From: an uncultured Solirubrobacterales bacterium
GTDB taxonomy: Bacteria; Actinomycetota; Thermoleophilia; Solirubrobacterales; 70-9
NCBI GenBank assembly: GCA_963695805.1
Contig: CAVOHV010000001.1
Coordinates: 67,843 to 131,842, forward strand
Length of the DNA stretch: 64,000 bases
Direction of reading: 5' to 3'
The notes below the pieces were generated by a model. That model was given only the letters and a program-made list of their open reading frames with translations. It ran no database searches and had not been told where the DNA came from. Shown in pieces: positions 7,841-33,887 of the stretch (position 1 is its first letter; each line of letters begins with the position of its first letter). Both the position numbers and the translations under genes were made by a program.

Positions 7841-9082
7841 ATGGAAGCCACGCGGAATGCCGGACCCATTCCCGGCATCCAGCCGTACGCGACCCGGGAG
7901 GATGCAATTGCGGCGTTCGCCGCCCACGTCAACCGCGGCAAGGCGAACGCTCTGCGTGCGATGGGCGTCGACATCGTCGTCGGTGAGCGCGAGGGAGCGC
8001 GGTTTCGCGACGCCTACAGTGGGCGCTGGTACTGGAACTGCCACTGCAACGGCGGCGTGTTCAACCTGGGACACCGGTATCCGGCGGCAGTCCGGGCGCT
8101 TCGCGACGCGCTGGAGCACCTCGACGTAGGCAACCACCACCTGATCAGCGGCTGGCGCGCCCGTCTCGGCGCGCAGCTGGCGGAGAGCACGGAGGGGGCG
8201 CTGCCTTATGCGATCCTCGCGCCCTCGGGCTCGGAGGCGGTGGATCTCGCGGTGCGCCTGGCGCGGGCCCACACTCGGCGCGAGGGGATCGTCGCGGCGC
8301 TCGGCGCCTACCACGGCCTGGCTGGATTCGGCTGGGCTGCCAGCGATCCGCGCTGGCTGGAGCCGTTTGGCTTTGGCCCTCCGGGCTTCGTCCACGTCCC
8401 ATTCAACGACCACGCTGCTCTACGGGAGGTCGTCGACCAGCGGACGGCCGCGGTCATCCTCGAGGCGATCCCCGCGACGCTTGGCTTCCCGCCACCCGAG
8501 CGCGGCTACTTCGAGGCGGTCGCGGCGACCGCCCGGAAACAGGGAGCCCTGCTGATCATCGACGAAGTCCAGACGGGACTGGGCCGAACAGGGACCCCGT
8601 GGTACTTCCAGCAGGAAGGAGTAGTGCCGGACATCCTGATCACCGGCAAGGGGCTCGGGGGTGGCGTCTACCCGGTCAGCGCCGCGATGGTGAGCGCAGA
8701 GGTGGAGTCGTTCTTCGACGATCACCCATTCGCTTACGTTTCGACCTTCGGGGGAGCCGAGCTCGGGTGCACGGTGGCGAGTGCTGTGCTTGATGAGGTC
8801 ATGCGGCCCGACTTCCTCGCCAGGGTCAGCGAGTTGGGGGAGCGATTTGAGAGCGGCCTTCGCGGCCTTCCGTTGCAGCTCCGCCGGCGCGGCCTGACGA
8901 TGGGACTCGAGTTCGATGGCGAGGAGGGCGGCGTGATCGCCGCAAAGCGGCTGATCGACGCCGGGGTGTTCGCCGTCTTCGCCGAGCATGACCACTCGGT
9001 CACCCAGTTCAAGCCTCCCCTGATCCTCACGGACGCCGAGGCGGACAAGGTCATCCAAACGGTCGGCGAGGCGCTCGCTTGA
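7841..9082 (+). CDS. class-III PLP-dependent aminotransferase-fold enzyme
   Basis: 413-aa ORF with SD GGAAGGAG upstream. LIIDEVQTGLGRTG and DILITGKGLGGGVYPVSA (PLP-lysine motif) are typical of the acetylornithine/omega-aminotransferase class. Confidence 0.85.
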   Translation: MEATRNAGPIPGIQPYATREDAIAAFAAHVNRGKANALRAMGVDIVVGEREGARFRDAYSGRWYWNCHCNGGVFNLGHRYPAAVRALRDALEHLDVGNHHLISGWRARLGAQLAESTEGALPYAILAPSGSEAVDLAVRLARAHTRREGIVAALGAYHGLAGFGWAASDPRWLEPFGFGPPGFVHVPFNDHAALREVVDQRTAAVILEAIPATLGFPPPERGYFEAVAATARKQGALLIIDEVQTGLGRTGTPWYFQQEGVVPDILITGKGLGGGVYPVSAAMVSAEVESFFDDHPFAYVSTFGGAELGCTVASAVLDEVMRPDFLARVSELGERFESGLRGLPLQLRRRGLTMGLEFDGEEGGVIAAKRLIDAGVFAVFAEHDHSVTQFKPPLILTDAEADKVIQTVGEALA

Positions 9083-10020
9083 CCGGGCCTTCGACCACTG
9101 GGGCGGGGGGTGCCGCCGCGGCGCGACCCGTGGCCGCCGGGCTCCCGGACGACGCTCTTCTCAGCCTCGACGAGCAGGTGGAGGCGGCGCTCGGCGCCGG
9201 CGACGAGTCGGCACTCCCGATCCTCGGCTATGGGGAGATCTCCCTGGTGCTCGGCTGGCCTTCGGAGCAACCCAGGTTCGCCTGCAAGAGGCTCCCGGTC
9301 TTCGCCACCCGCTCCGGGTTCAACGCCTACCTGCGCACTCTCGACGCCTACCTCGACGCGCTGCGGCAAGCTGGGATTAGGGTCGTGCAGACCGAGCTGC
9401 GGCCGGTGACCCGAGATGACGGAAGCGTTGCCGGCTACGTGGTGCAGCCGGTCCTGCCCGCCGAGGACCTGGCTCCGGCCATCCTCGCTCACGAGGACCC
9501 CTATCCCGGGCATCCTCTCGTTGCGGCCCTGGTTGGCACGGTTGCAGACGCGGTCAGCCCGACGGTGGGACTGGATGCGCAGCTCTCCAACTGGACCTGG
9601 GACGGCTCCGTACTCACCTACCTCGACGTGTCCACCCCACTGCTGTGGTCCGACGAAGGCCGCCCGCTGCTCGATCTCGATCTGCTCTCGCGCGCCATCC
9701 CCTGGGCGCTGCGGGGAGCGCTGCGGCGACTCGTGGTCCCGGGAATCGTCGAGACCTACCACGACCTGCAAAAGGTCTACCTCGACCTCTGCGGGAACCT
9801 GGTCAAGGAGCGCCTCGACCGCTGGCTGCCGGTCTTCCTGGAGCAGGTCGCCCGCCGTCTGGACACCCCTCTCACCGCCGGCGAGGTCCACCGCTACTAC
9901 CGATCGGATGCCCGGCTGTGGGCGATGCTGCTACGGATCCGTCGGCTCGACCGGGCCTGGCAGCTGCGCGTCCGGCGCCGGCCGTATCCGTTCCTGCTGC
10001 CGGGGGAGATCGAGCGCTGA
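9079..10020 (+). CDS. hypothetical protein with protein-kinase-like motifs
   Basis: Start overlaps the aminotransferase stop (TTG 9079; alternative GTG 9130). Candidate kinase-fold elements: Gly-rich loop GYGEISLV, Lys in FACKRL, catalytic-loop-like GLDAQLSNW, and YLDVS. Family not identified. Confidence 0.5.
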   Translation: MTGPSTTGAGGAAAARPVAAGLPDDALLSLDEQVEAALGAGDESALPILGYGEISLVLGWPSEQPRFACKRLPVFATRSGFNAYLRTLDAYLDALRQAGIRVVQTELRPVTRDDGSVAGYVVQPVLPAEDLAPAILAHEDPYPGHPLVAALVGTVADAVSPTVGLDAQLSNWTWDGSVLTYLDVSTPLLWSDEGRPLLDLDLLSRAIPWALRGALRRLVVPGIVETYHDLQKVYLDLCGNLVKERLDRWLPVFLEQVARRLDTPLTAGEVHRYYRSDARLWAMLLRIRRLDRAWQLRVRRRPYPFLLPGEIER

Positions 10021-12806: not shown

Positions 12807-13253
12807 CTAGGAAGTGCTGCTGGTCACTGGTGGAGGAGAGTACGAGTAGCCGCTCGAGCCTGAGGCGCCACCTGAGCCTGACGAATAGCCGCTCGAGGAG
12901 CCGTAGTAGCCGTCATCGCCATACGTCTGCGCGTACGGATCTGTCGCGGAGCCGCTCGCCGGCGAACTGCCGCTCGAACCGCTAGTGGCTTTCGAGGTCG
13001 AGGCCTTGTTTGCACGATCTGCCGCCTTTGGGCCGAGCGCCGGGTCGCTCCCGGCGGCCATCTGCGCGGCGATCAGTCCGCCGATTGCGAGGGTGGCAAC
13101 GACGGCGAGCATCGCCACCTTCGCCGTCAGCGCTTTGGTGGATTGCCGTGGCGCACGCGACTTGGGGCGGTTCCACTGAGACGAGCGGACCATTTGCGGC
13201 TGCTCGACATCGCGCCGTGGAATCCACTCCGGGTATCGATCTCTGGAGTTCAT
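12807..13253 (-). CDS. signal-anchored Gly/Ser/Tyr-rich low-complexity protein
   Basis: ATG at 13253 overlaps the upstream stop (ATGA). Basic N-terminus, one TM (VAMLAVVATLAIGGLIAAQMAAG), then about 85 residues rich in S/G/Y (SGSSGSSPASGSATDPYAQTYGDDGYYGSSSGYSSGSGG...). Confidence 0.55.
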   Translation of the reverse strand: MNSRDRYPEWIPRRDVEQPQMVRSSQWNRPKSRAPRQSTKALTAKVAMLAVVATLAIGGLIAAQMAAGSDPALGPKAADRANKASTSKATSGSSGSSPASGSATDPYAQTYGDDGYYGSSSGYSSGSGGASGSSGYSYSPPPVTSSTS

Positions 13254-13891
13254 GCGGCTGGCTCGTAGTCGTAGGAGCGCGCCCCTGCCGGCCTTGAGAG
13301 CTGCTCGGACGGGAGGGGGATCCTCCGCTGCCGCCGGCCTCTGGTCGGCTCATCGCTCGGGAGGAGGCGGATCGTCGCCATCAACGCAACCGGAGCGACG
13401 GTGGCGATCACGATCAGCACCAGCCAGAGTGAACGGGCGTCCGTCCCGGCGCCGAGCGTGTGGACGACGGCCAGGACGTAGACGGCCAGCGTCCAGCGGT
13501 GCATCTTGCGCCAGAGCTTGGGGCCGATCCAGCGACGGACGTAAAAAGTGAGCCCAAGCAGCGCGGCCAGCCAGCCACCGATGATGCCGAGGCCGGTCCA
13601 AAGAGGCTTATGGGCCATGACGAAGGGAATGGCGATCCCGGCCAGCCCGGGCCGGAGGTAGCTATCGCCAAGCAGCGCCAAGCCATGGGCGGTAATGAAG
13701 ATCAGCGTCGCCAAGGCCGTCGCCTCGTGCACCTGCCTCAGCCTGGCCATCGCGCCTGGGCCCTTGGCCGCGCGCATCGCCATGGCCAGTCCGAGTCCGA
13801 CTGAAATCGCGGCCAGGGCCAGGGCTACGACGCCGGAGGCTCGGCTGAGGATCCAGAAGATGTGTTGGCCGGGGTCGCTGTAGGAGTTCAC
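13250..13891 (-). CDS. ferric-reductase-like transmembrane (MsrQ/YedZ-like, di-heme b) protein
   Basis: 213 aa and about 6 TM. Four conserved-looking His lie in TM helices (VHEAT, TAHGL, KMHRW, VVHTLG). GTG start overlaps the ApbE stop (GTGA). Confidence 0.7.
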   Translation of the reverse strand: MNSYSDPGQHIFWILSRASGVVALALAAISVGLGLAMAMRAAKGPGAMARLRQVHEATALATLIFITAHGLALLGDSYLRPGLAGIAIPFVMAHKPLWTGLGIIGGWLAALLGLTFYVRRWIGPKLWRKMHRWTLAVYVLAVVHTLGAGTDARSLWLVLIVIATVAPVALMATIRLLPSDEPTRGRRQRRIPLPSEQLSRPAGARSYDYEPAA

Positions 13892-14877
13892 GCGGGCACC
13901 GCCGTAGCCCCGTCACTGGGCTGCTCCGCTAGGGAGCCGCAGAGCTCGACTCGACCGTCGTCGAGAACGATCAGCCCGCCGTGCTCGGAGAGGATCTCGG
14001 GCGCCGCCTCTGGGCCTGAGAGAAAGGCCATCTTGGCCAGGGTCTCTGCCTCGAGGGCTGTCGTACCTAGTGAGGTCGTTTGGATCAGCCCGGTCCAGGC
14101 TGGGTTTCCGGTCGAGGGGTCGAGCAGGTGGTGGGCGAAGCCACCGTCCGTACGCCAGAGGCGAGTCTTGATCCCGCTCGTCGCCACCGCTCCGAGACTG
14201 AGATGGAACTCGTGTGCCGGACGGTCATCGAGCGGGTGGTCGATCCGGACCAGGCGCTCGAGCGGGCGCTCGCCGCCGATCCGTAGGTCGCCACCAGCGT
14301 CAATGACGAAGGTCGAGTAGCCGTCCATGCGCTCGGCGGCCAGATCCGCAGCAAGACCCTTGCCGCTGCCGCCGGTGTCGATGCGGACGCCAGATGGCCT
14401 ACTCACGAGTCCCGTAACAGCGTCGACCGAGACGTCGCGCCAACGAGCGTCCGCCCGGGGAGTGGCGGCTTCACGCTTGGGGGCGACTGACAGGGCCTCG
14501 GCGATGCTCTCCGTGGGTAGTTCGGCGTGCGAGCTGGCATAGCCGGCTTTTTCCAGTTCTTCCACCAAGGTCGGATCGACGAGACCCCCGGAACGCCGCG
14601 CAGCCCAGAGCGCACCCTGGACGGCAATGGCAACTGTTGGGCTGACGGAGCAGGATTCGCCGGGCTCCGCATTCAGTGCGCAGAGCTCGCTGTCCTTGTC
14701 GAAGCGGGTCAGCTTGCGGTGCAGCAGCCTCAGGAAGAACTCGATCTGGATACCCATCGCCTCGGGTGAGGGAAGCCCCGGCCGAACCGGCGCGCCGATC
14801 AGGACGCGCACATGGGTGCCGAAGAGCTTGAAGCGACGGTCGTATTCAACGTGCGGGTGGCCTGGGCCCGGGCTCAC
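13888..14877 (-). CDS. apbE: FAD:protein FMN transferase (ApbE family)
   Basis: 329-aa ORF. FGTHVRVLIG, LVDPTL, IDTGGSGKGLAADL and VIDAGGDLRIGG blocks are typical of ApbE. No obvious signal peptide or lipobox. Confidence 0.8.
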   Translation of the reverse strand: MSPGPGHPHVEYDRRFKLFGTHVRVLIGAPVRPGLPSPEAMGIQIEFFLRLLHRKLTRFDKDSELCALNAEPGESCSVSPTVAIAVQGALWAARRSGGLVDPTLVEELEKAGYASSHAELPTESIAEALSVAPKREAATPRADARWRDVSVDAVTGLVSRPSGVRIDTGGSGKGLAADLAAERMDGYSTFVIDAGGDLRIGGERPLERLVRIDHPLDDRPAHEFHLSLGAVATSGIKTRLWRTDGGFAHHLLDPSTGNPAWTGLIQTTSLGTTALEAETLAKMAFLSGPEAAPEILSEHGGLIVLDDGRVELCGSLAEQPSDGATAVPA

Positions 14878-14979: not shown

Positions 14980-15657
14980 ATGCGGATCCTGGTCGTCGAG
15001 GACGAGCGTCCGATTGCCGAGTTCATCCAGCGCGGGCTCGAGGCTGAGGGCTACTCGGTCGCCTGCGCTTTCAACGGCGAGGAAGGCCTGGCGCTGGCGC
15101 GAAGCGGCGACTACGCCCTCGTTGTCCTCGACGTGCTCCTACCCAAGCTGAGTGGGCTCGAGGTGGTCAAGGGAATCCGCGAGACCGATGAGACCTTGCC
15201 GGTGATCATGCTGACCGCCCTGGCCGAGACCGACGACATCGTCACCGGACTCGATCTCGGCGCCAGCGACTACCTGACCAAACCCTTTGCCTTCGCCGAG
15301 CTGCTGGCGCGGAGCAGGGCACACCTGCGCCAGCCCGGCCAGGTCAACGCCACCTCACTGGTGGTCGGCGGGATCAGCCTCGACTTCCGCACCCGCGCCG
15401 TCGATCGAGACGGCCGCGGCGTCAGCCTCACGGCACGAGAGTTCGAGCTCCTGGCCTACCTGATGCGCTACCCCGACCAGGTGCTCTCCCGCGCTCAGAT
15501 CCTGAACGCGGTTTGGGGCTACGACTACGACCCTGGGACCAATGTCCTCGACGTCTACATCGGCTACCTGCGCAGAAAACTCGCCGAAGCCGACGGGGAG
15601 GCGCCGATAGAGACCGTTCGCTCGGCCGGCTTCCGGCTGGTGAGCGCCGATGCTTAG
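14980..15657 (+). CDS. OmpR-family response regulator
   Basis: MRILVVEDE, phospho-acceptor region LVVLDVLLP, and a C-terminal winged-helix (LTAREFELLAYLM...VRSAGFRL). Confidence 0.9.
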   Translation: MRILVVEDERPIAEFIQRGLEAEGYSVACAFNGEEGLALARSGDYALVVLDVLLPKLSGLEVVKGIRETDETLPVIMLTALAETDDIVTGLDLGASDYLTKPFAFAELLARSRAHLRQPGQVNATSLVVGGISLDFRTRAVDRDGRGVSLTAREFELLAYLMRYPDQVLSRAQILNAVWGYDYDPGTNVLDVYIGYLRRKLAEADGEAPIETVRSAGFRLVSADA

Positions 15658-17086
15658 CTGGATCCCGCGCGGGATTCGCCTGCGGCTCGTCCTGGCGATC
15701 TCCGCGGTCAGCGTCGCTGCAGTAGCCGCGAGCTTCTTTGCTCTGCACGAGACGACTGCCGCCAACCTCCGCAGTCGCATCGACCGCGAGCTGAATGAGC
15801 AGTACGCCGAGTTCCAGCAGCGCGTGCTCAGCGGCGGCAAAGTCACGGATCCGGCAGGGCTGCGGGCGGCAGGCGAACGCTTCGTCGCCGGGCAGCGCTA
15901 CCACCCCGAGGCCCGCATCTATCTGGTCTCGCCGCACGGGCTGGCCCCTGTCACCAACCAGACCCGGATCGTCGACGAGGAGCTCGCCGAGAGCCGCCCA
16001 GGCGGAGAGAGCGGCGAGGCTGATGCCGACGGCATCGTCTCCGCCGGGGACGGCTTGACAACGATCTCCACCGATGAGACTGGCAAGCTGAGGGTGCTGA
16101 CCGAGCCCGTCGTGGTCGGTGGGACGAGGATCGGCACCTTCCGCGTGGCCGATCCGCTTACCTCGATCGACCAAGCCCTGGCCTCGCTGCGCAACCGCTT
16201 CATCGCAGTCGGGCTCGGAGTCCTGCTGCTCTCCGTGGCGATCGCGATCTGGCTCGCCAACGTGATCTCGCGGCCGCTGCGGCGCATGGCGGCCGTAGCC
16301 TCGGCGGTCGACTCCGGGGACCTCTCGCACCGGATCGACTACGAGGGTGAGGACGAGGTCGGCGTGTTGGCTGAGGCGTTCAACCACATGCTCGACCGGC
16401 TCGAGCACGGCTTTCGCCTGCAACGCGACTTCGTCTCCGACGCATCCCACGAGCTGCGCAGCCCGCTCACCGTGCTCCGGGGGCGAATCGAGCAGCTGGC
16501 TGACCACGCCGGCGACCGTCAGGCCGTCGAGGCCGAGGCCAGTGAGTTGATGCGCGAGGTCCGGCGCATGGAGCGGCTCAGCGACGACATGTTGACGCTG
16601 GCCAAGGCCGAGCGTGGAGGATTGGTGCAGCGGCGCCGCGTCCCGGTCGACGACTTCGTCGAGGATCTTCGTCGCGATCTGCCCCTGCTTGGATCCCGCC
16701 ACTTCAGCGTCGAGTCGAGCCTCCATGGCGATCTCGAAGCTGACCCGGATCGACTGGCACAGGTCCTGCGCAACCTGGTCACGAATGCGGTGAGTCACAC
16801 CAGCGCTGACGGACACATCGACATCGCAATTGCCCCAGAGGACGGCTCGGCAGTCTTCGCCGTCAGCGACGACGGCAGTGGGATCGAGCCCGACCAGCTC
16901 GTGCGGATCTTCGATCGCTTCCACCGCACTGACGAGGGGCGCAGCCGTGCCGAGGGAGGCAGCGGGCTGGGGCTGGCGATCGCCCGAGCGATCGTCGAGG
17001 CCCATGGGGGCTCGATCACGGTGAAGTCCCCTCCGGGTGAGGGCGCGACCTTCCGCTTCTCGATCCCGGGCTACAGGTCGGCCTAG
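15650..17086 (+). CDS. sensor histidine kinase (two TM, HAMP, HisKA, HATPase_c)
   Basis: ATG overlaps the RR stop. H-box FVSDASHELRSPLT, N-box NLVTNAVSHT, G-boxes DDGSGI and GGSGLGLAI. Confidence 0.9.
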   Translation: MLSWIPRGIRLRLVLAISAVSVAAVAASFFALHETTAANLRSRIDRELNEQYAEFQQRVLSGGKVTDPAGLRAAGERFVAGQRYHPEARIYLVSPHGLAPVTNQTRIVDEELAESRPGGESGEADADGIVSAGDGLTTISTDETGKLRVLTEPVVVGGTRIGTFRVADPLTSIDQALASLRNRFIAVGLGVLLLSVAIAIWLANVISRPLRRMAAVASAVDSGDLSHRIDYEGEDEVGVLAEAFNHMLDRLEHGFRLQRDFVSDASHELRSPLTVLRGRIEQLADHAGDRQAVEAEASELMREVRRMERLSDDMLTLAKAERGGLVQRRRVPVDDFVEDLRRDLPLLGSRHFSVESSLHGDLEADPDRLAQVLRNLVTNAVSHTSADGHIDIAIAPEDGSAVFAVSDDGSGIEPDQLVRIFDRFHRTDEGRSRAEGGSGLGLAIARAIVEAHGGSITVKSPPGEGATFRFSIPGYRSA

Positions 17087-26108: not shown

Positions 26109-27544
26109 AGCCGATCGACCGGGGCACCTGGCTGGCGCTCGGCGCGATGGGCGTCGCCGTCTTCGTGATCGCCAACGATTTCTCGGCGATCAACGTCGCG
26201 ATTCCGCAGATCGAGAAGGACTTCGACACGAGCGTCACCACCGCGCAGTGGGTGGTCAATGCCTACGCCCTGGTCTTCGGGGTCCTGATCGTCACCGGCG
26301 GCCGCCTGGCGGACCTCTTCGGCCGCCGGCGCGCGTTCTTCATCGGCAGTGGGATCTTCGCGACCTTCTCACTGCTCGGCGGGGCGGCCCAGACAGAGAC
26401 CGAGCTGATCGCGATGCGGGTGCTGATGGGGATCGGCGGAGCGCTGATGTGGCCGGCGATCCTCGGGATGACCTACGCCGCGCTGCCGGAGGAGCGCGCC
26501 GGGCTGGCCGGCGGCTTCATTCTCGGCGCCGCCGGCATCGGCAATGCCGCCGGGCCCCTGATCGGCGGCGCCCTGACCGACCTGCTCAGCTGGCGCTGGA
26601 TCTTCTTCCTCAACGTCCCCGTGACGGCCTTCGCCGTCTTCGTCACCCTGCGCGAGATCCACCAGCCGCGGCCGGAGGTCGAGGACACCCGTATCGACTA
26701 CGGTGGGATCGCCACGGTGTCCGTGGGCCTGGTGGCCCTGCTGATCGCCTTCGACCAGGCCACGGATTGGGGTTGGGGCAACCCGAAGATCATCGGGTTG
26801 CTGGTGCTCTTCGTCGTGCTGATCGGAAGCTTCGTGGCGGTCGAGCGGCGGGCGGGCGAGCATGCGCTGGTCCCGCCCGACGTGATCGGGAACCGGAACT
26901 TCGCCTACACCTGTGCAGCGATCCTGCTGATGTCCGCCGTCTTCTTTGCGGCGATGCTCTATCTGCCGCAGTTCATGATCTCCGTCCTCGGCTACTCGCC
27001 GATCGGCGCCGGCGCCGGCATGCTGCCGATGATGGCGACCTTCGCAGCCGTCTCCTTCGTCGCCGGCAACCTCTACAACCGGTTCGGCTCGAAACCGCTT
27101 CTCATCCTCGGCTCGCTGTGCATCGCCGTCGGGCCTGCCTTGATTGCGATCTTTGCCGAACAGGAGAGCTACGGAGCGATCGTTCCGGGGATGGCGATCC
27201 TCGGCCTCGGGATCGGCCTCTTCTATCCGACGGCGACCACGGACGGCGTGACGGCCTGCAATGAGTCGAGGCGGAGCCTGGCCGGCGCGATCATCTACAT
27301 GTTCCAGATCGCCGGCGGCTCGGTGGGCCTGGGCCTGACCACGGCGATCTTCATCGGCGCGAGCGACGGAGCCACGAGCGGTCCCGACTTCGTCAACGGC
27401 ATCCAGACCGCCTTCGGCGTCGATGCGGCCATCGCTGTGGGCGGCTTCCTGATCGCCACCTTCCTGATCGGTGGGCGTCTCCGTCTGGCGCACGCCCATC
27501 GTCCGGCGCTGGCCGGCCACTCGCCGCGCGGGCACGGACCCTAG
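26105..27544 (+). CDS. MFS transporter, DHA2 (EmrB/QacA, 14-TM) type
   Basis: ORF 25757..27544. ATG 26105 (MKPIDRGTWLALGAMGVAVFVIANDFSAINVAIPQIEKDF) overlaps the upstream stop. The motif LADLFGRRR is present, with about 14 TM. Confidence 0.85.
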   Translation: MKPIDRGTWLALGAMGVAVFVIANDFSAINVAIPQIEKDFDTSVTTAQWVVNAYALVFGVLIVTGGRLADLFGRRRAFFIGSGIFATFSLLGGAAQTETELIAMRVLMGIGGALMWPAILGMTYAALPEERAGLAGGFILGAAGIGNAAGPLIGGALTDLLSWRWIFFLNVPVTAFAVFVTLREIHQPRPEVEDTRIDYGGIATVSVGLVALLIAFDQATDWGWGNPKIIGLLVLFVVLIGSFVAVERRAGEHALVPPDVIGNRNFAYTCAAILLMSAVFFAAMLYLPQFMISVLGYSPIGAGAGMLPMMATFAAVSFVAGNLYNRFGSKPLLILGSLCIAVGPALIAIFAEQESYGAIVPGMAILGLGIGLFYPTATTDGVTACNESRRSLAGAIIYMFQIAGGSVGLGLTTAIFIGASDGATSGPDFVNGIQTAFGVDAAIAVGGFLIATFLIGGRLRLAHAHRPALAGHSPRGHGP

Positions 27545-27564
27545 GTTCTCGAGGGCTTGCCGGC

Positions 27565-27587
27565 TTTTGGTCGCTATGCGACCAAAA
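27565..27587. repeat. AT-flanked palindrome TTTTGGTCGC-TAT-GCGACCAAAA, related to the element at 54310-54355
   Basis: 10-bp perfect arms. It shares the core and flanks GCCGG(C)TTTTGGTC(G/A)C...G(C/T)GACCAAAA with the second copy. Confidence 0.6.
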
Positions 27588-27714
27588 TCGACCACAGCCG
27601 CAGGTAGGTCAGGAAGTCTGGCCGGGTCCGGAGTCCGCGGGCGTCCCAGTGCAGCAGAAGGGCGGTGCACGCAAGCGCCACCCTCTGTCGCATTCGTTGG
27701 CGGGAGCCGGTCCC

Positions 27715-28227
27715 CTAGTCGTGGGCGGGTGGATCGTCGGAGCCGCCGCCGCCACTGCCCCCGCCACTGCCGCCGGCGTCTCCGCTCGACCCGCTCGAGC
27801 CGTTGGAGCCGCTCGAACCGCTGCCGCCGCTGGAACCGCTCGAGCCGCTGCCTCCGGAACCGCTGCCTCCGGAGCTGCTGCCTCCCGAGCCGGACTCCTT
27901 GCGCTGGCCGCCGTGGTCGTCACCGCCGCCGCCCCCAGATCCGGAGGTTGAGGACCGGCCGGAGTCATCCGAACCCGAGCCTGAGGTGCCGGTGTCATCG
28001 CCCGAGACGTCGTCGCTCTGGCCCGAGGCTCCACCGTGGTCGTCGTTGCGGTCCTCCACCACCGGCGCCGGCCTCGGCTTCGGGGCGGACGCGACGAGTG
28101 AGACCGGCTGGGCGGAGAGTCCGATGTCTCGGCCCGAGATCGCGTTTGCAGCGAGCGCGATCGCCCCTGCCGCCACGATCCCGGCGATCCCGAGGAGGAC
28201 GGTGAGGATTCGCTCCTTGGTGGTCAT
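27715..28227 (-). CDS. signal-anchored Asp/His/Gly/Ser low-complexity protein (DDHGG motifs), co-transcribed with the two-component system
   Basis: ATG 28227 lies 4 nt after the HK stop. TM is ILTVLLGIAGIVAAGAIALAA. The tail contains NDDHGGASGQSDDVSGDD, GDDHGGQRKESG and long (SGS)n tracts. Confidence 0.6.
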   Translation of the reverse strand: MTTKERILTVLLGIAGIVAAGAIALAANAISGRDIGLSAQPVSLVASAPKPRPAPVVEDRNDDHGGASGQSDDVSGDDTGTSGSGSDDSGRSSTSGSGGGGGDDHGGQRKESGSGGSSSGGSGSGGSGSSGSSGGSGSSGSNGSSGSSGDAGGSGGGSGGGGSDDPPAHD

Positions 28228-28231
28228 GCGA

Positions 28232-29620
28232 TCACCGTAGAGGTCGCGAGTTAGGAGATGGCAAAGGCTCGCTGGGCAGGGTGACCTCGGCCCGGACGGC
28301 CCCCTCCTCCGCGTTCTCGATCCGGGCGGTGCCGCCCCTGCGACGTGCGAGGGCAGCCACGATCGGCAATCCAAGGCCCGTGCCCTCGCGGCGGCCGCTC
28401 CCACGGTAGAAACGCTCGAAGGCGCGGCGGCTGAGCTCGGGATCGATCGGTCCCGACTGGCTGAGCACGCCGATCCTGCCCGCCCCGTCCACGTGATCGG
28501 TCTCGACCCTCACGGTGGAGCCCCGGGGCGAGTACTTGAGTGCGTTCTCGATCAGGTTGTCGAGGATGGCCGCGAGCTCTGTGTCGCCGGCCCGGACGAC
28601 ACCCCCGCCCTGTCCGTCGAGCATGATCCCGTGCCCCGATTCGTCGGCGGGCCCGCGCCAGCGCTCGATGGCGTCGCGTGCCGCGGCGTCGAGATCCGCG
28701 CTCGCCTCCTCGGCGGACTGCTCACTCGAGGCCAGCTCGAGCAGATCCGAGACGAGTCCCTCGAGACGGGCGCTCTCGCGCTCGGCAGCCTCGAGTTCCT
28801 TGCGGACCTCGGGATCGTCGGTCTTCACACCCGCGGCCTCGAGGCGGAGTCGCAGGCCTGTCAGAGGGGTGCGCAGCTGGTGCGAGGCATCCGCGACGAA
28901 CACCCGCTGGGACTCCAGCACGGCATCGAGCCTGTCCGCCATCTCATTGAACTCATGGGCCACCTCGACCTGTTCGCTCGAGCCGCGCTCGGGTGCACGC
29001 GCCTCCGAGTCCCCGGCGGCGCGGCGGCGTGCGGCCTCACCGAGCGAGCGCAATGGCCTCGCAATGGACCCGGCGAGGATCCAGGCGACGCCGAGTCCCA
29101 GCACCAGGGCGAGCACCCCGATGCCGATCAGGGCGAGCACGTCCTGGCGGACCTGGCTGTGGACCGCGTGCAGGCTCTGCTCGACCTCGAGGGCACCGAT
29201 CGTCCGGCCGTTGCGGACGATGGGCACCGCGGTGGAGAGCACATCGCGGCCCTCGTGGTGGCGGCCCTGAGCGATGTTCCCGTCGAGCGCCTGCAGCGCA
29301 ACGGGGTCGTCGGTCAGCCGCGGTGGGCTCGCCACCGCACTGGGATCCGAGCTCGCGATCTCCTTGCCCCGCCCGTCGATGATGAAGACGAGTCCGTCGA
29401 GCCTCGCCGACGCCTCGGTCGCGACCCGCTGAAGCCGAGCGGGTGTCCGGAGCTGGTCGGCGACGGAAGCGGCGACGACCTGGGCCTGGGCGGCGGAATC
29501 CGCCTCGACCTCCGCGTTCACGCGGTCGCTGACGTTGGCCGACAGGGGGACCTCGAGGGCGACGATCACCACCAGCAGCGTGTAGGCGAAAGCCGCCAGG
29601 AGGCGGGCGCGCAGGCTCAT
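28232..29620 (-). CDS. sensor histidine kinase (HAMP, HisKA, HATPase_c)
   Basis: 462 aa. H-box FVADASHQLRTPLT, N-box LIENALKYSP, and G2 GTGLGLPIV. Confidence 0.9.
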   Translation of the reverse strand: MSLRARLLAAFAYTLLVVIVALEVPLSANVSDRVNAEVEADSAAQAQVVAASVADQLRTPARLQRVATEASARLDGLVFIIDGRGKEIASSDPSAVASPPRLTDDPVALQALDGNIAQGRHHEGRDVLSTAVPIVRNGRTIGALEVEQSLHAVHSQVRQDVLALIGIGVLALVLGLGVAWILAGSIARPLRSLGEAARRRAAGDSEARAPERGSSEQVEVAHEFNEMADRLDAVLESQRVFVADASHQLRTPLTGLRLRLEAAGVKTDDPEVRKELEAAERESARLEGLVSDLLELASSEQSAEEASADLDAAARDAIERWRGPADESGHGIMLDGQGGGVVRAGDTELAAILDNLIENALKYSPRGSTVRVETDHVDGAGRIGVLSQSGPIDPELSRRAFERFYRGSGRREGTGLGLPIVAALARRRGGTARIENAEEGAVRAEVTLPSEPLPSPNSRPLR

Positions 29621-29627
29621 CGGTGTC

Positions 29628-30341
29628 TCAGGCCTCGTCGGCCCCGGAGAACCTGAAGCCGACTCCGCGGACCGTGTGGATGTAGCGCGGGTTCGACGGA
29701 TCGTCGTCGAGCTTCTTGCGAAGCCCGCTGACGTGGACGTCGAGTGTCTTGGTGGAGCCGAACCAGTTCATGTCCCAGACCTCGTCGATCAGGGCCTCGC
29801 GCGTCAGCACCGAGCCCGCGCTCTCCATCAGTACCCGGAGCAGCTCGAACTCCTTGCGCGAGAGCTCGATCGGATTCCCTCCGAGGCGCGCCTCGTGCTT
29901 GTCCCTATCGAGGGTGAGGTCGCCGATCCTCATCGGGCCGGTGCCGTCGGCGCTCGGCACGGGCGCTGCGCGCCTCAGAACCGCCCTGACGCGCGCCATC
30001 ACCTCGCGGGCCGAGAACGGCTTGACGATGTAGTCGTCCGCCCCGAGCTCGAGGCCCGCGACCCGGTCGGCCTCGGACCCTCGCGCGGTGAGCATGATGA
30101 TCGGGACCCGGCTGTCCTGGCGCAGCTCCCGGCAGACGTCTAGGCCGGAGCCGTCGGGCAGGCCGATGTCGAGCAGGACGAGGTCCGGCGACTGCGCGCC
30201 GGCCTTCTCCATGGCCTCGGCGGCCGTACCGGCCACGGAGGCGTTGAAGCCCTCGCGCTCGAGGGCCTCCGCGAGGGGCTCGGTGATCGCCCGCTCGTCC
30301 TCGACGAGCAGGATGGTCTGGCGCTGGGGCGACGGGTTCAC
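29628..30341 (-). CDS. OmpR-family response regulator
   Basis: ILLVEDE, DLVLLDIGLPDGSG, and a winged-helix C-terminus (LSRKEFELLRVLM...VRGVGFRF). Confidence 0.9.
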   Translation of the reverse strand: MNPSPQRQTILLVEDERAITEPLAEALEREGFNASVAGTAAEAMEKAGAQSPDLVLLDIGLPDGSGLDVCRELRQDSRVPIIMLTARGSEADRVAGLELGADDYIVKPFSAREVMARVRAVLRRAAPVPSADGTGPMRIGDLTLDRDKHEARLGGNPIELSRKEFELLRVLMESAGSVLTREALIDEVWDMNWFGSTKTLDVHVSGLRKKLDDDPSNPRYIHTVRGVGFRFSGADEA

Positions 30342-30461
30342 AGCGACCTGATGCTAGGGGTGGCAAAGAAAACGGCTTGGGGCCGCCGGCCGGAGATTCG
30401 GCCAGCGGCCCCGCACCTGTCCTCGACGTCTCTCAGTCGTGGTGCTCGGATCCGTTCGGTC

Positions 30462-30986
30462 CTAGTCGTCGTCCGAGCCGCCCGAGTGGCTCGACGCGGA
30501 GCTGCCCGACCCCGAGCTGCCGGAGCCAGAGCTCCCGGAGCCGGAGTTGCCGGAGTCGCCACCGTGATCGTCGGCGAGATCGTGGCCTGGGCCGTCATCG
30601 GCGCCCTGGCCACCGTGGTCGTCCCCGACGTCGTGGCTCGGGCCATCATCGCTGTGCGAGCTGCCGGGACCCGAGTTCTGCGAGCCGGGACCGCGGTTGC
30701 CGTGCTCGCCGGGGTTGTCGTCGCCGACATCGTGGCCGGGACCGTCGTCGGTCGTGGTGGTCCGCCCGTTGTCCTCGGGCCGCTGCGGTCCCGCACAGCG
30801 CGGATCGTTGGCGTGCTCTGCCTCGTCGCACGGTCCGCTGACGTCCACGGTGTCGGTGGTGCTGGTCGTGGCGGCCGCCGGGGTGGCGGTGGAACTCTTG
30901 TCGGCCGGCGCCGCCATCACGTAGGCGGCCCCTCCGACGAGGATGCCGACCAGTACGGCCAGCAGCGTCTTCGACATGGTTCCCAT
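30462..30986 (-). CDS. signal-anchored Asp/His/Gly/Ser low-complexity protein (three DDGPxHDxxDD repeats), paralogue-like of 27715-28227
   Basis: ATG 30986 with AAGGAGG 7 nt upstream. TM is LLAVLVGILVGGAAYVMA. Contains CDEAEHANDPRC, repeats DDGPGHDVGDD / DDGPSHDVGDDHGG / DDGPGHDLADDHGG, and an (SGS)n tail. Confidence 0.6.
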   Translation of the reverse strand: MGTMSKTLLAVLVGILVGGAAYVMAAPADKSSTATPAAATTSTTDTVDVSGPCDEAEHANDPRCAGPQRPEDNGRTTTTDDGPGHDVGDDNPGEHGNRGPGSQNSGPGSSHSDDGPSHDVGDDHGGQGADDGPGHDLADDHGGDSGNSGSGSSGSGSSGSGSSASSHSGGSDDD

Positions 30987-31131
30987 CAACAATCCTCCTT
31001 GCACTTGGGTGTGGCGGCCACTATCCGCGGCCCGCGTCAGACGATGCCCAGGGGCAGGAAACCGGTTGGCAAGGGGAGGGTTAAGCCTTCGTAAGGTAGG
31101 CAGGACACCCCTCCACGCCCAGGAGTTGCCC

Positions 31132-31866
31132 ATGAGCCCTGACCAGGATCAAAGCCGCGTCGCCGTGATCACCGGAGCGTCGTCCGGCATCGGCGAGGCC
31201 ACGGCACGCGCCCTCGCCGCCGACGGCCACCGCCTCGCGCTGCTGGCCCGCCGTGCCGACCGCATCGAGGAGCTCGCCGCCGAGCTCGGCAACGGCGCGG
31301 TATCGATCGTCGCCGACGTCACCGACCGGGACTCGCTCGTCTCTGCCGCGGAGCGCGTTCAGGCAGACCTCGGAGGCGCCGACATCCTCGTCAACAACGC
31401 GGGCGTGATGCTGCTCGGCCCGTTCGACTCCGAGCACAGCGACGAGCTCCGCCAGATGGTCGAGGTCAACCTGCTCGGGGCGATGACGGCGACCGAGGTC
31501 TTCCTCGACCAGCTTCGTGACGGCGGGGGGGACCTGGTCAACATCTCGTCGGTGGCCGGTCGGACGGCACGCGCCTTCGGTTCCGGCTACAACGCGACGA
31601 AGTGGGGTCTGAACGGCTGGTCGGAGGCCCTGCGCCAGGAGCTGCTGCCCGACATTCGGGTGATGGTGATCGAGCCCGGGGCCGTCGGTACGGAGCTCAC
31701 CGATCACATCACCGACTCGAGCGTCAAGGAGGCCACCGAGAAGTTCTACGGCGAGGTCGCGATCACGGCCGCGGACATCGCCGAGATCATCGCCTTCTCG
31801 GTCTCACGCCCGCGGCGGGTCAACCTGAACGAGATCCTGGTCAGGCCCACGGCGCAGGCGCGCTGA
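31132..31866 (+). CDS. short-chain dehydrogenase/reductase (SDR)
   Basis: ATG 31132 preceded by AGGAG. VAVITGASSGIGEA (TGxxxGxG), NNAG, and the catalytic Y-x3-K in YNATKWG. Confidence 0.85.
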   Translation: MSPDQDQSRVAVITGASSGIGEATARALAADGHRLALLARRADRIEELAAELGNGAVSIVADVTDRDSLVSAAERVQADLGGADILVNNAGVMLLGPFDSEHSDELRQMVEVNLLGAMTATEVFLDQLRDGGGDLVNISSVAGRTARAFGSGYNATKWGLNGWSEALRQELLPDIRVMVIEPGAVGTELTDHITDSSVKEATEKFYGEVAITAADIAEIIAFSVSRPRRVNLNEILVRPTAQAR

Positions 31867-31931: not shown

Positions 31932-33887
31932 ATGGAAGCGGCGACTCGTTTCGGGATCCGCAACTGGCTAGCTGCGTTCGGCTGCGCGGTAATTGCGCTG
32001 CTTGTGATCTCACCTGCAGCCAAGGCGGGGGTAAACGGCCAGTGCCCGTCGATCGCCGATAAGCCCGCCGCCGCGTCCCACGTCCCCTACCAGGACGTCC
32101 AGCACATCACCTACTGCTACGGGCCGATCAACATGACGCCGGGGCAGAACATCATCAAGTTCCGACCCGCGATCGACAGCATCGGGAACAAGCTCTGGCC
32201 CCAGGAGGACGGCTACATCACCCGCTTCGACCCGGAGCTGGTCTACACCGATGGAACGGTCCCGCGGGTCGACTTCCTGCATTTGCACCACGCGGTCTGG
32301 GCCGTCAACGGGGCCCCGCAGTTCGCGGTCGGGGAGGAGAAGACGGTCCAACAGCTTCCCCAGGGATTCGGCTGGCGCAGCCATCCCGGCGACAGCTGGA
32401 TCCTCAACGACATGCTGCACGACCTCGTCGCCCAGCCCGCCCAGGTCTACGTCGTCTGGCGCATCGACTTCGTCCCTGACAGCTCACCCGACGCGGCCTC
32501 GATTCACACCGTGCACACCAAGTGGATGGACGTGGCCGGCAACCCGAGCATCTATCCCGTCTTCGACTCGCTGCGCGCCTACGGCAAGAACGGCCGCTAC
32601 ACGTTCCCTGATCAGGCGCCGGCCTCGGACCTTCATCCATGCGGATCGAGCGGTCGGGCGCCGGACACCCACGGTTGTCTCGGAGCCGCCCAGAGCTGGA
32701 CCCCGACTCAGGGCTCGACCCTGATCGCCACCGCCGGGCACCTGCATCCTGGCGGGCTCTACACCCAGTTATGGGACACCCGCAACGGCACCACCAACAC
32801 GCTCTTCACCTCCGACGCCCATTACTACGAGCCCGCGGGTGAGGTCTCATGGGACGTCGCGATGGGCGCCACGCCGCCCGCCTGGAGGGTGCAGGTGAAG
32901 GCAGGCGACACGGTGAGCGTGCACGCCACCTACGACACGACGAGATCGGACTGGTACGAGGTGATGGGCATCATGCCCGTCGCGGTCTACAACGGGACCG
33001 ACGTCGGGGGGAAGGACGCGCAGGCGAATGACATCCCGCAGGACGAGGTCCGGACCCACGGGCACCTGGCCGAGAACGACAACCACGGCGGCGAGCCCAC
33101 GGGCGCCGCGAACCCGCTGTCGCTGCCGAGCGCGGCGGTGCCGAACAGCACGATCGGCATCCAGTTGTTCACGTACCAGGCGGATCAGAGCGCTGGCCTG
33201 AGCGTGCCGACGGTCGAGCCGGGGCAGTCGATCACCTTTCACAACCTCGACGCGGTGCCGAGCGTCAATGCCTTCCACACGATCACGGCCTGTAAGGACC
33301 CCTGCACCGCAAGGACCGGAATCGCCTTCCCGATCGCCAACGGGCCGGTGACCTTCGACTCGGGCGAGCTGGGCTTCAACGGGAACCAGGGTTCATTCGG
33401 GAATGCCCCGGCGGCCAATCGCGACACCTGGCAGACCCCCAAGGACCTTCCAACCGGCACCTACACCTTCTTCTGCCGGATCCATCCGTTCATGAGAGGA
33501 GCCTTCCGCGTGGAGCCGCAGTCCGGCCCACGGCAAACGCTGAGGGCGAGGAAGAAGCAGAAGCTCGCAGCGGCGGCGGTCAGCGAGACGGTCGAAAAGG
33601 CGGCCACGGTGCGGCTTCGGGCGAGGGTGAAGGGGGCGACGAAGTCGGCGGGCGCCTCCGGCGCGTCGCACGTCCTCTCCCAGGCACTCGACGCCAAGCG
33701 GTCCACGATTTCGCTCAATCCCAGGGTCAGGACGAAGATCAAGCTGAGGTTCTCGAAGGCAGCGCGCAAGCGACTCGGGGCGGCGCTCGCGCAGGGCGGA
33801 CCGCAGAAGATCGTCGTCACGGCCACGGCCACCGACGGGTTCGGCAAGACGTCGACCGCCAAGGCGAGCTTCAGGCTGATCGGCTAG
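31932..33887 (+). CDS. secreted multidomain copper protein: N-terminal domain with a PHM/DBH-like His/Met pattern, amicyanin-like cupredoxin domain, basic beta-rich C-terminal domain
   Basis: Signal peptide WLAAFGCAVIALLVISPAAKA. HLHH (about residue 117-120), LHD (about 163), GHLHPGG (about 270-272), EVMGIM (about 345). Cupredoxin ligands are H (NAFHTITAC) and C-x2-H-x2-M (FFCRIHPFMRG). Confidence 0.6.
   Translation: MEAATRFGIRNWLAAFGCAVIALLVISPAAKAGVNGQCPSIADKPAAASHVPYQDVQHITYCYGPINMTPGQNIIKFRPAIDSIGNKLWPQEDGYITRFDPELVYTDGTVPRVDFLHLHHAVWAVNGAPQFAVGEEKTVQQLPQGFGWRSHPGDSWILNDMLHDLVAQPAQVYVVWRIDFVPDSSPDAASIHTVHTKWMDVAGNPSIYPVFDSLRAYGKNGRYTFPDQAPASDLHPCGSSGRAPDTHGCLGAAQSWTPTQGSTLIATAGHLHPGGLYTQLWDTRNGTTNTLFTSDAHYYEPAGEVSWDVAMGATPPAWRVQVKAGDTVSVHATYDTTRSDWYEVMGIMPVAVYNGTDVGGKDAQANDIPQDEVRTHGHLAENDNHGGEPTGAANPLSLPSAAVPNSTIGIQLFTYQADQSAGLSVPTVEPGQSITFHNLDAVPSVNAFHTITACKDPCTARTGIAFPIANGPVTFDSGELGFNGNQGSFGNAPAANRDTWQTPKDLPTGTYTFFCRIHPFMRGAFRVEPQSGPRQTLRARKKQKLAAAAVSETVEKAATVRLRARVKGATKSAGASGASHVLSQALDAKRSTISLNPRVRTKIKLRFSKAARKRLGAALAQGGPQKIVVTATATDGFGKTSTAKASFRLIG

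Follow-up and report, generated by a model that had tools for sequence, protein, structure and literature searches.

The DNA studied here is a window of 64,000 nucleotides (G+C content of about 69%) from an uncultured Solirubrobacterales bacterium (assembly GCA_963695805.1, contig CAVOHV010000001.1, positions 67,843 to 131,842 of the forward strand), and all positions below are counted from its first letter. On its minus strand lie four consecutive genes: up174, which encodes a small exported protein; an OmpR/PhoB-family response regulator (RR); a histidine kinase (HK); and down170, which encodes a second small exported protein (Table 1). The homologues of up174 and down170 are called the MOT family and the DN family, respectively. 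This gene order, and the position of the down170 ATG 4 nt past the TGA of the HK gene, had been given in a first-pass annotation made from the letters alone, and the coordinates of the open reading frames (ORFs) agree with both.

To see how far this gene group extends, one genome per species was scanned, and relatives were found in 371 genomes; the synteny figures given here refer to the best 80 loci, which are cited by their L numbers where necessary. The motif gene adjoined an orthologous RR-HK pair in 74 of these 80 loci, and three independent look-ups agreed. Two arrangements were found. Arrangement A, MOT-RR-HK(-DN), was present in 48 loci of Solirubrobacterales, Thermoleophilaceae, and some Gaiellaceae, and arrangement B, RR-HK-DNlike-MOT, in 26 loci of Gaiellales and unclassified bins. 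In addition, a profile of the first 50 DN residues identified the gene directly after HK in 33 loci, and down170 orthologues start no more than about 30 nt from the HK stop. As for taxonomy, 78 loci came from metagenome-assembled genomes (MAGs) of Solirubrobacterales, Thermoleophilaceae, and Gaiellales or from MAGs labelled only as Actinomycetota, Actinomycetes, or Thermoleophilia; the remaining two came from one Ilumatobacteraceae MAG and one bin labelled Vicinamibacteria. Among the six loci without this linkage, L028 and L050 alone have flanking room on both sides and no RR-HK pair; in L078 the sequence extends about 3.4 kb downstream but only 0.5 kb upstream of the gene, and in the remaining three it stops at the gene or within 160 nt of it. 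Linkage to two-component systems in relatives, which the first-pass annotation had proposed as a test, is strongly conserved. We consider it quite likely that both small proteins are coupled in function to this two-component system, either as its accessories or as its output.

Both small ORFs are genuine genes under purifying selection, because their G+C content at third codon positions (GC3) in the sense frame is 0.87 for up174 and 0.84 for down170, their divergence is dominated by the third position, up174 is preceded by a Shine-Dalgarno sequence, and homologues of similar length number in the hundreds. For instance, the differences from the L005 orthologues at codon positions 1, 2, and 3 were 11, 11, and 54 for up174 and 27, 20, and 68 for down170. 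Furthermore, CAAGGAGG precedes the start codon by 5-7 nt in almost every MOT orthologue, and thus the start of up174 is fixed at 30986. The first-pass annotation had reckoned with an antisense frame as the real gene. An antisense ORF at 27803-28240(+) does have a GC3 of 0.83 and a GC1>GC2 pattern (first against second codon positions) slightly more canonical than that of down170, and a naive GC3-based caller chose the antisense frame in L004. However, base composition is all that backs this frame, whereas the sense frame keeps the N-terminal helix, the start codon, the Shine-Dalgarno sequence, and the translational coupling across orthologues, and its motif varies only synonymously. The Pro/Leu/Glu-rich antisense ORF arises because GGC, AGC, and GAC codons yield such a by-product, and it is scarcely credible that this frame is the true coding one or that the small ORFs are low-complexity artefacts.

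The two proteins share one plan, namely a single N-terminal hydrophobic helix and then an ectodomain rich in G, S, D, H, T, and N, just as the first-pass annotation described. The helix has 19 residues in each case and is preceded by K/R (residues 8-26 in up174 and 7-25 in down170). The six residue types make up 72% of the up174 ectodomain (isoelectric point (pI) 4.1) and 76% of that of down170 (pI 4.25), and the disordered tails of about 140 residues contain 18-29 acidic residues and 3-9 His. By the positive-inside rule, the remainder of both proteins would lie outside the cell behind a single N-terminal anchor. Two copies of DDHGG are present in each protein, as had been reported. The motif DDGP[GS]HD[VL][GA]DD does occur three times in up174, but the copies are spaced (residues 80, 113, and 130) and not in tandem as claimed. 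In an AlphaFold2 (AF2) model of up174 built on a 33-sequence alignment, the mean predicted local distance difference test (pLDDT) score was 52, 95 of the 174 residues scored below 50, and helix 3-21 alone was ordered; the score rose slightly at residues 50-70, around the Cys loop described below. As modelled, up174 is an intrinsically disordered protein with one short constrained element, which supports the earlier suggestion of a disordered ectodomain. Neither a lipobox nor a twin-arginine motif was found in the up174 sequence, its orthologue in L050 (Ilumatobacteraceae) has a classical AFA↓A cleavage site, and up174 may be signal-anchored or secreted.

The hallmark of the MOT family, and its most conserved feature, is a Cys-loop module and not the D/H/G/S repeats. 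The first-pass annotation mentioned this loop only in passing, as a C-x10-C, which is indeed present (CDEAEHANDPRC, residues 53-64). The module of about 19-20 residues, (V/E)D(V/I)(S/K)GPCDEAEHANDPRC(A/T)G, is essentially invariant in the MOT alignments, the DNSGPGSxNSGPG block is nearly invariant, and the D/H/G/S tail drifts. Seven ligand-type residues (C, D, E, E, H, D, and C) fall within 12 positions of the loop, whose invariant part spans 14 residues. Each MOT protein contains 1-3 copies, and 164 distinct instances were collected from 120 proteins. At the DNA level, 51 distinct versions of the module varied at third codon positions only, which shows that selection acts on the peptide and not on a DNA or RNA element. 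Furthermore, L050 and L028 carry the module with no two-component system nearby. The loop therefore has a function of its own, and an autonomous motif of this kind is more in line with a module that binds a ligand or metal than with a peptide that serves purely to dock to the kinase. A MOT sub-family (P0233, P0243, P0266, and P0228; also L084/L085, 5001-5804) is likewise remote from two-component systems. Its members combine 2-3 GPCDEAEH loops with an unannotated beta-rich domain of about 90 aa and an Asp/His tail; the domain pattern is ..VAYSFDG.TFTL..GW..EVxF..GTxRVDV..G.VRERVRxRDxADDSETR...

A search with up174 retrieved 430 proteins at E ≤ 1e-3; the 120 listed were mostly 100-240 aa long, and none had a Pfam domain or a functional name. 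A profile of the motif only was then searched against 1.84 billion representative proteins, clustered at 50% identity. It matched 573 clusters at E ≤ 1e-3 and 243 at E ≤ 1e-10, and nearly all of the best 150 were 67-300 aa long. The homologues of both families are all labelled hypothetical. Neither up174 nor down170 had a Pfam or NCBIfam match at E ≤ 1, PDB sequence searches with up174 and with the motif profile gave nothing at E ≤ 10, and a literature search returned no paper on the motif or on either family, with DUF5666 (see below) appearing in gene lists only. These results agree with the first-pass annotation, which had recognised no described family.

The search with down170 retrieved the second family, which is distinct from that of up174. 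Its conserved N-terminus reads M(T/S)xRExxLTVLLGxxGxxAAxAIxLAANAISGxxIGLSAxPVS; DDHGG and an SGS tract come next, and the protein ends in GGSDD or DDPPxHD. In the helix and the juxtamembrane motif, G16, A27, and P41 are invariant and A20 is nearly so. This conservation in the helix and the adjoining segment points to a helix-helix contact in the membrane.

Whether the two proteins are paralogues, as had been suggested, was judged in two ways. Direct homology was rejected, since BLASTP of up174 against down170 gave E = 0.65, which is not significant, and a profile-profile comparison (hhalign) of MOT and DN aligned only 15 low-complexity columns in the NSGPGS stretch. The comparative evidence from arrangement B speaks for kinship, however. 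There, the protein after the kinase has an anchor related to that of down170 (LALPVGLALAVYLSSA..), and its loop is canonical GPCDEAEH in L033, L064, and L026/L060; a degenerate C-x10-C in L051/L082 (GKCKDRDHRLDPDC), L079 (GKCDDPKHSLDPDC), and L061/L071 (RECEDDDDSLDPDC); and absent, with DDHGG only, in L039, L042, L046, L049, and L055. Degenerate copies mostly keep C, H, D-P, and C, and the L061/L071 form is without the His. This gradient from full to degenerate to DDHGG-only at the post-kinase position provides the strongest sign that MOT and DN are probably old paralogues and that the DN lineage of Solirubrobacterales has probably lost the loop.

Upstream of up174, in the divergent intergenic region shared with a short-chain dehydrogenase/reductase (SDR) gene, three direct repeats were found 82-110 nt before the ATG. 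The pattern is unique within the window (expected 0.05), and direct repeats are kept about 100 nt upstream of MOT genes in arrangement A; in Gaiellaceae they read AGGCTTTACC-A-AGGCTTTGCC with an exact 11-bp period. Direct repeats with an 11-bp period are the typical geometry of binding sites for the OmpR/PhoB family. We infer that these repeats are the operator of the adjacent RR, and we lean slightly towards the view that up174 is under the control of this regulator. A second conserved block, CTGGGCATCGTCTGACG, includes CGTCT, which resembles the -10 elements of extracytoplasmic function (ECF) sigma factors, and a generic sigma-70 scan found no full promoter. Behind up174, every arrangement-A locus that was folded had a perfect stem of 12-15 bp at the same place. 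These stems differ in sequence, and thus the structure, not the sequence, is conserved. Furthermore, a -10-like box precedes the RR start by 7-12 nt in arrangement A (TAGCAT, TACGAT, or TAGCCT) and is similarly placed in arrangement B (TATTGT or TATCGT), and the mRNA of RR, HK, and down170 is probably leaderless or has a short leader. Because of the direct repeats, the Shine-Dalgarno sequence, the terminator hairpin, and the -10 box before RR, up174 appears to be a transcription unit of its own, and its message would be monocistronic and strongly translated. No known RNA from Rfam was found within 27300-31400.

Table 1. Genes and sequence features of the four-gene locus, with positions in the 64,000-nt window
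Feature	Position	Strand	Description
up174	30462..30986	-	Anchor/signal helix (residues 3-26), Cys-loop module, DNSGPGSxNSGPG block, 3 DDGPxHDxxDD, 2 DDHGG, SGS tract, acidic GGSDDD end
RR	29628..30341	-	OmpR/PhoB-family response regulator, 237 aa; Response_reg and Trans_reg_C domains
HK	28232..29620	-	Histidine kinase, 462 aa; transmembrane helix 1, predicted WalK-like sCache/PDC ectodomain (about residues 30-160), transmembrane helix 2, HAMP, HisKA, HATPase_c
down170	27715..28227	-	Conserved anchor helix and juxtamembrane segment, 2 DDHGG, long SGS tract, DDPPAHD end
Invariant Cys-loop module of up174	30789..30848	-	VDVSGPCDEAEHANDPRCAG; residues 47-66; C53-x4-H58-x2-D61-x2-C64
Most conserved part of down170	28096..28209	-	Gly/Ala-rich transmembrane helix and juxtamembrane motif ILTVLLGIAGIVAAGAIALAANAISGRDIGLSAQPVSL; residues 7-44, from the family alignment
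Candidate RR operator	31068..31096	-	Three direct repeats with CTTA/CTTG core, spacing 10-12 bp: CCTTACG-AAGGCTTAACC-CTCCCCTTGCC
Second conserved non-coding block	31035..31051	-	CTGGGCATCGTCTGACG; from the alignment of 19 upstream regions; unique in the window; between the repeats and the -10-like box
Putative -10-like hexamer of up174	31020..31025	-	GATAGT, conserved as GATAGTGGCCGCC; 34-39 nt before the up174 ATG
Shine-Dalgarno sequence	30994..31000	-	AAGGAGG, 7 nt before the up174 ATG
Terminator-like element	30364..30412	-	14-bp GC hairpin (30379-30412), then U-rich GUUUUCUUUG (30364-30373); between the up174 stop and the RR start; z = -3.6
Putative -10-like box of RR	30351..30356	-	TAGCAT, 9 nt before the GTG start of RR
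Repeats encoding the (SGS)n tract of up174	30481..30560	-	Imperfect 15/9-nt repeats (Tandem Repeats Finder)
Repeats encoding the (SGS)n tract of down170	27782..27892	-	Imperfect 9/27/15-nt repeats (Tandem Repeats Finder)

The alignment of the HK ectodomain showed a PDC/Cache-like conservation pattern, and fragments of HK orthologues have precomputed sCache_like or sCache_3_2 matches. An AF2 model of HK residues 1-195 had a pLDDT of 85.6, and its top Foldseek matches in the PDB were WalK: chain 9a5d_A, an integrative model of WalK with YycH, gave a TM-score of 0.84, and the Staphylococcus aureus WalK ectodomain structures 5is1, 7dud, and 4ywz, then DctB, DcuS, CitA, and Tlp3, followed. By this model, the HK ectodomain has a WalK-like sCache fold. 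However, RR scored below the cut-off of every named NCBIfam equivalog (227 against 340 bits for YycF and 226 against 300 for MtrA), and so did HK (134 against 725 bits for HK_WalK and 118 against 450 for MtrB). The RR-HK pair as an orthologue of WalRK, of MtrAB, or of a heavy-metal system was rejected, since all NCBIfam scores are far below the cut-off.

We give about an even chance to the explanation that the locus is a four-gene sensing module in which the exported disordered proteins are a co-sensor and a regulated output, possibly responsive to metal or redox state. Such a module would consist, across the class Thermoleophilia, of an OmpR-type RR, a WalK-like sCache HK, and two exported, disordered, acidic proteins. 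The down170 protein, translationally coupled to HK, would pack against the transmembrane helices of HK and tune its activity, much as WalK is modulated by YycH and YycI. Meanwhile, up174 would form a separate, probably highly expressed unit with a candidate operator, a consensus ribosome-binding site, and its own terminator. Exported to the surface, its product would be the main regulated output and a feedback element, by analogy with cpxP and silE/pcoE. The C-x4-H-x2-D-x2-C loop would bind the cue, most plausibly a transition-metal ion or alternatively a redox state, and the Asp/His/Gly/Ser tail would be a flexible, cation-binding spacer; such acidic, His-bearing tails may either bind bulk cations or act merely as spacers. 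As for the function of the loop, we tentatively place a metal site first, on the basis of the Cys/His/Asp composition, a heavy-metal-kinase match below threshold, and analogy, and a thiol-disulfide switch second, with clearly less confidence. It is doubtful, and we offer it as speculation, that the GPCDEAEHANDPRC loop is an autonomous extracytoplasmic binding mini-module for a metal or another small ligand, which would form with the WalK-like HK a Thermoleophilia-specific "sense, secrete and feed back" circuit with the disordered protein as the primary sensor/effector.

Several observations weigh against this explanation. No conserved Cys, His, or Met was found in the HK ectodomain (about residues 30-160) across orthologues, and the best NCBIfam match of HK, the cztS/silS/copS family (TIGR01386), is full-length and scores 169.6 bits against a cut-off of 292.55. 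A survey of the neighbours in 50 loci found no conserved metal-efflux or metal-handling gene. In addition, the Cys pairs of exported proteins are usually oxidised to disulfides in Actinomycetota, and a metal site would then be deprived of its thiolates. The candidate operator was assigned from conservation, and the direct repeats were sought in arrangement-B loci and not found there. The up174 protein may remain in the membrane or may be released by cleavage, and all of the related organisms are uncultured MAGs.

Three other explanations were weighed. First, the small proteins could be envelope polyanions, that is, surface-anchored acidic polymers that bind Ca2+/Mg2+ or buffer pH, with their level set by the two-component system and the Cys loop as a staple or attachment site. 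The low pI (about 4.1-4.25) and the acidic and His residues of the tails fit this, and so do the freely varying tract length and the similar DDxPxH/GGSDD tails on neighbouring DUF5666 proteins. However, the extreme conservation of the module and of the helix and juxtamembrane segment of down170, while the tails drift, is left unexplained, and we regard this possibility as unlikely.

Second, C53 and C64 could cycle between dithiol and disulfide, so that HK activity depends on the loop's state, whether this is free or presented to the sCache domain, with the tail as no more than a spacer. Two invariant Cys at a 10-residue spacing, kept even in degenerate copies, are what such a sensor would need, and an exported protein tightly linked to a kinase would suit it. 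Nevertheless, a simple disulfide switch does not explain the invariance of H58, D61-P62, E55, and E57, no thioredoxin-like or Dsb-like gene is conserved nearby in the 50 surveyed loci, and loop copies occur far from two-component systems. This makes the redox sensor rather improbable.

Third, a secreted peptide signal can be imagined, as in the pheromone cassettes of Gram-positive bacteria, in which 1-3 cores are excised and HK senses a disulfide-cyclised 12-residue loop. In keeping with it are the small size and strong translation of a gene that adjoins RR-HK and has a terminator of its own, the multi-copy cores between variable linkers, and a candidate autoregulatory operator. This reading is very unlikely, however, because the core is invariant across orders, without pherotype diversification, and because genes for processing and export were not found: the neighbour survey showed no conserved processing protease, C39-ABC exporter, AgrB-like gene, or modification enzyme. 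Furthermore, no conserved cleavage motif exists beyond the core, and orphan loop copies have no kinase. The families thus differ from ComC/AgrD-type precursors in both respects, in the lack of a dedicated processing or export gene in the 50 loci and in the invariant core peptide.

The proposed four-gene sensing module is of a kind already known, namely a two-component system with exported accessory proteins. New are the disordered partners, the invariant mini-loop, and the class-wide conservation in two layouts. To our knowledge, the accessory proteins of two-component systems described so far are folded.

The closest parallel is the walRK operon of Bacillota, in which YycH and YycI are N-terminally anchored, are encoded after WalK, and modulate WalK (PMC7355866, PMC5013275). 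As in WalR-WalK-YycH-YycI, an OmpR-type RR and an HK with an extracytoplasmic sCache/PAS domain predicted to have the same fold occur with two single-anchor proteins, and that gene order is the order of arrangement B. The down170 gene has the placement of YycH/YycI, in the same operon and directly after a kinase that is WalK-type by its predicted fold, and contact between down170 and HK would be made through the transmembrane helices, as for YycH/YycI. However, YycH and YycI have large folded ectodomains, whereas the partners here are disordered, acidic, and of low complexity with short invariant motifs, and Pfam YycH/YycI are unmatched. In contrast to the walRK operon, one accessory gene (up174) has moved upstream and apparently gained its own promoter and terminator.

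A second parallel is SilE/PcoE, small exported disordered metal sponges that have been proposed to signal to the sensor; silE is transcribed separately beside silRS, and CusRS governs the expression of pcoE (PMC5008109). Like them, up174 is small, exported, disordered, and His-bearing and lies beside a two-component system with a candidate promoter of its own. However, SilE/PcoE carry His/Met motifs (MxxH and HxxM), whereas the up174 ectodomain is without Met and has Asp/His and one Cys pair; there is no sequence similarity, and the neighbour survey found no efflux pump or P-type ATPase with the module. Exported CpxP and QseG, which are encoded by their own systems, modulate the sensors CpxA and QseE via the periplasmic domain (PMC4160245, PMC12691602), and the proteins studied here resemble them in being exported accessory proteins encoded beside the system. 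Unlike CpxP (helical, LTXXQ) and QseG (a lipoprotein), which are both folded, they have no family match and no sequence kinship with either. The LTXXQ fold of CpxP/Spy/ZraP had no Pfam match here, and no helix was predicted in up174 beyond the anchor.

These results indicate selection on one membrane helix and on one Cys/His/Asp loop of 19 residues; in a soil class that is abundant but has barely been cultured, this loop is the same in two orders or more. Should it be a metal or redox site, the loop would represent a new minimal binding module and a tractable case of signalling via a disordered bacterial surface protein. In addition, the finding gives a name to 573 clusters (50% identity) of "hypothetical proteins", and the predicted operator could define a regulon in Thermoleophilia genomes.

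The repeats behind the SGS tracts, noted in the first-pass annotation, were confirmed with Tandem Repeats Finder (Table 1). Its proposal that they change length by slippage holds over evolutionary time, as interspecies in-frame indels cluster in the tracts (residues 143-166 of up174 and 115-123 of down170). However, near-identical strains in soil-metagenome contigs had the same SGS tract lengths as the window and differed by 3-nt indels only, at 30465, 30660, and 30891. Thus, tract length is evolutionarily labile, and nothing points to rapid variation of the phase type.

Soil metatranscriptome contigs 94-97% identical to the window overlap up174 (for example, at 30789-30936 and 30854-30986) and weakly back its transcription; their depth is low, and DNA carry-over is possible. 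The core of the RR receiver domain (29979-30260) had very high metagenome and metatranscriptome depth, which reflects cross-mapping from many unrelated response regulators and not the expression of this gene. Apparent frameshifts were seen in down170 of L006 (about 8705-9178) and in the kinase of L004 (7223-8756) and of L029, which is split into two ORFs in both. These are most likely errors of long-read MAG assembly, not pseudogenes.

Among the neighbours, a major facilitator superfamily (MFS) transporter, in Solirubrobacterales only, and DUF5666 genes in some loci were conserved. The MFS transporter is DHA2/TRI12-like (26120-27544(+) in the window) and lies convergently 8-134 nt past down170 in about 20 Solirubrobacterales loci (L001, L003, L004, L009-L020, L022, L023, and L029); this synteny could reflect mere relatedness. 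Small secreted DUF5666-like genes stand directly upstream of the module, 31-52 nt away on the same strand, in L002 (5593-5949), L031, L062, and L076, and divergently in L001 (5427-5795). The secreted DUF5666 proteins of Actinomycetota have a Gly-rich C-terminal tail of DDPPxH type in common with down170; they contain a small beta domain that is folded, and they lack a Cys loop. The Gly-rich tails in L001 and one further locus, which end in ADDPPNHT or GADDTPGH...GADDPAGHR, resemble the DDPPAHD end of down170 and the DDGPxHD of up174, and DDxPxH may be a short motif shared by the DUF5666-like proteins, down170, and up174.

On the other side of the locus, 31932-33887(+) encodes a secreted 651-aa protein without a Pfam family, in which residues about 506-528 (TYTFFCRIHPFMRGAFRV) resemble the copper-ligand loop at the C-terminus of amicyanin (E = 0.005 over 21 residues for NCBIfam TIGR02657 and about 0.7 for the amicyanins in the PDB). 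This cupredoxin-like neighbour was not used as evidence for copper, because it is syntenic in the closest relatives only (L004, L009, and L029).

The first-pass annotation also pointed to a third anchored protein, rich in G, S, and Y, at 12807-13253(-). It does lie beside the second two-component system of the window, but it shares no motif or similarity with up174 and down170. Its gene overlaps by 4 nt the stop of a gene for a ferric-reductase-like membrane protein (13250-13891), which in turn follows an ApbE flavin transferase gene (13888-14877). This cluster (12807-14877(-)), divergent from the second OmpR/HK pair (14980-17086(+)), is probably an extracytoplasmic flavinylation/electron-transfer cluster.

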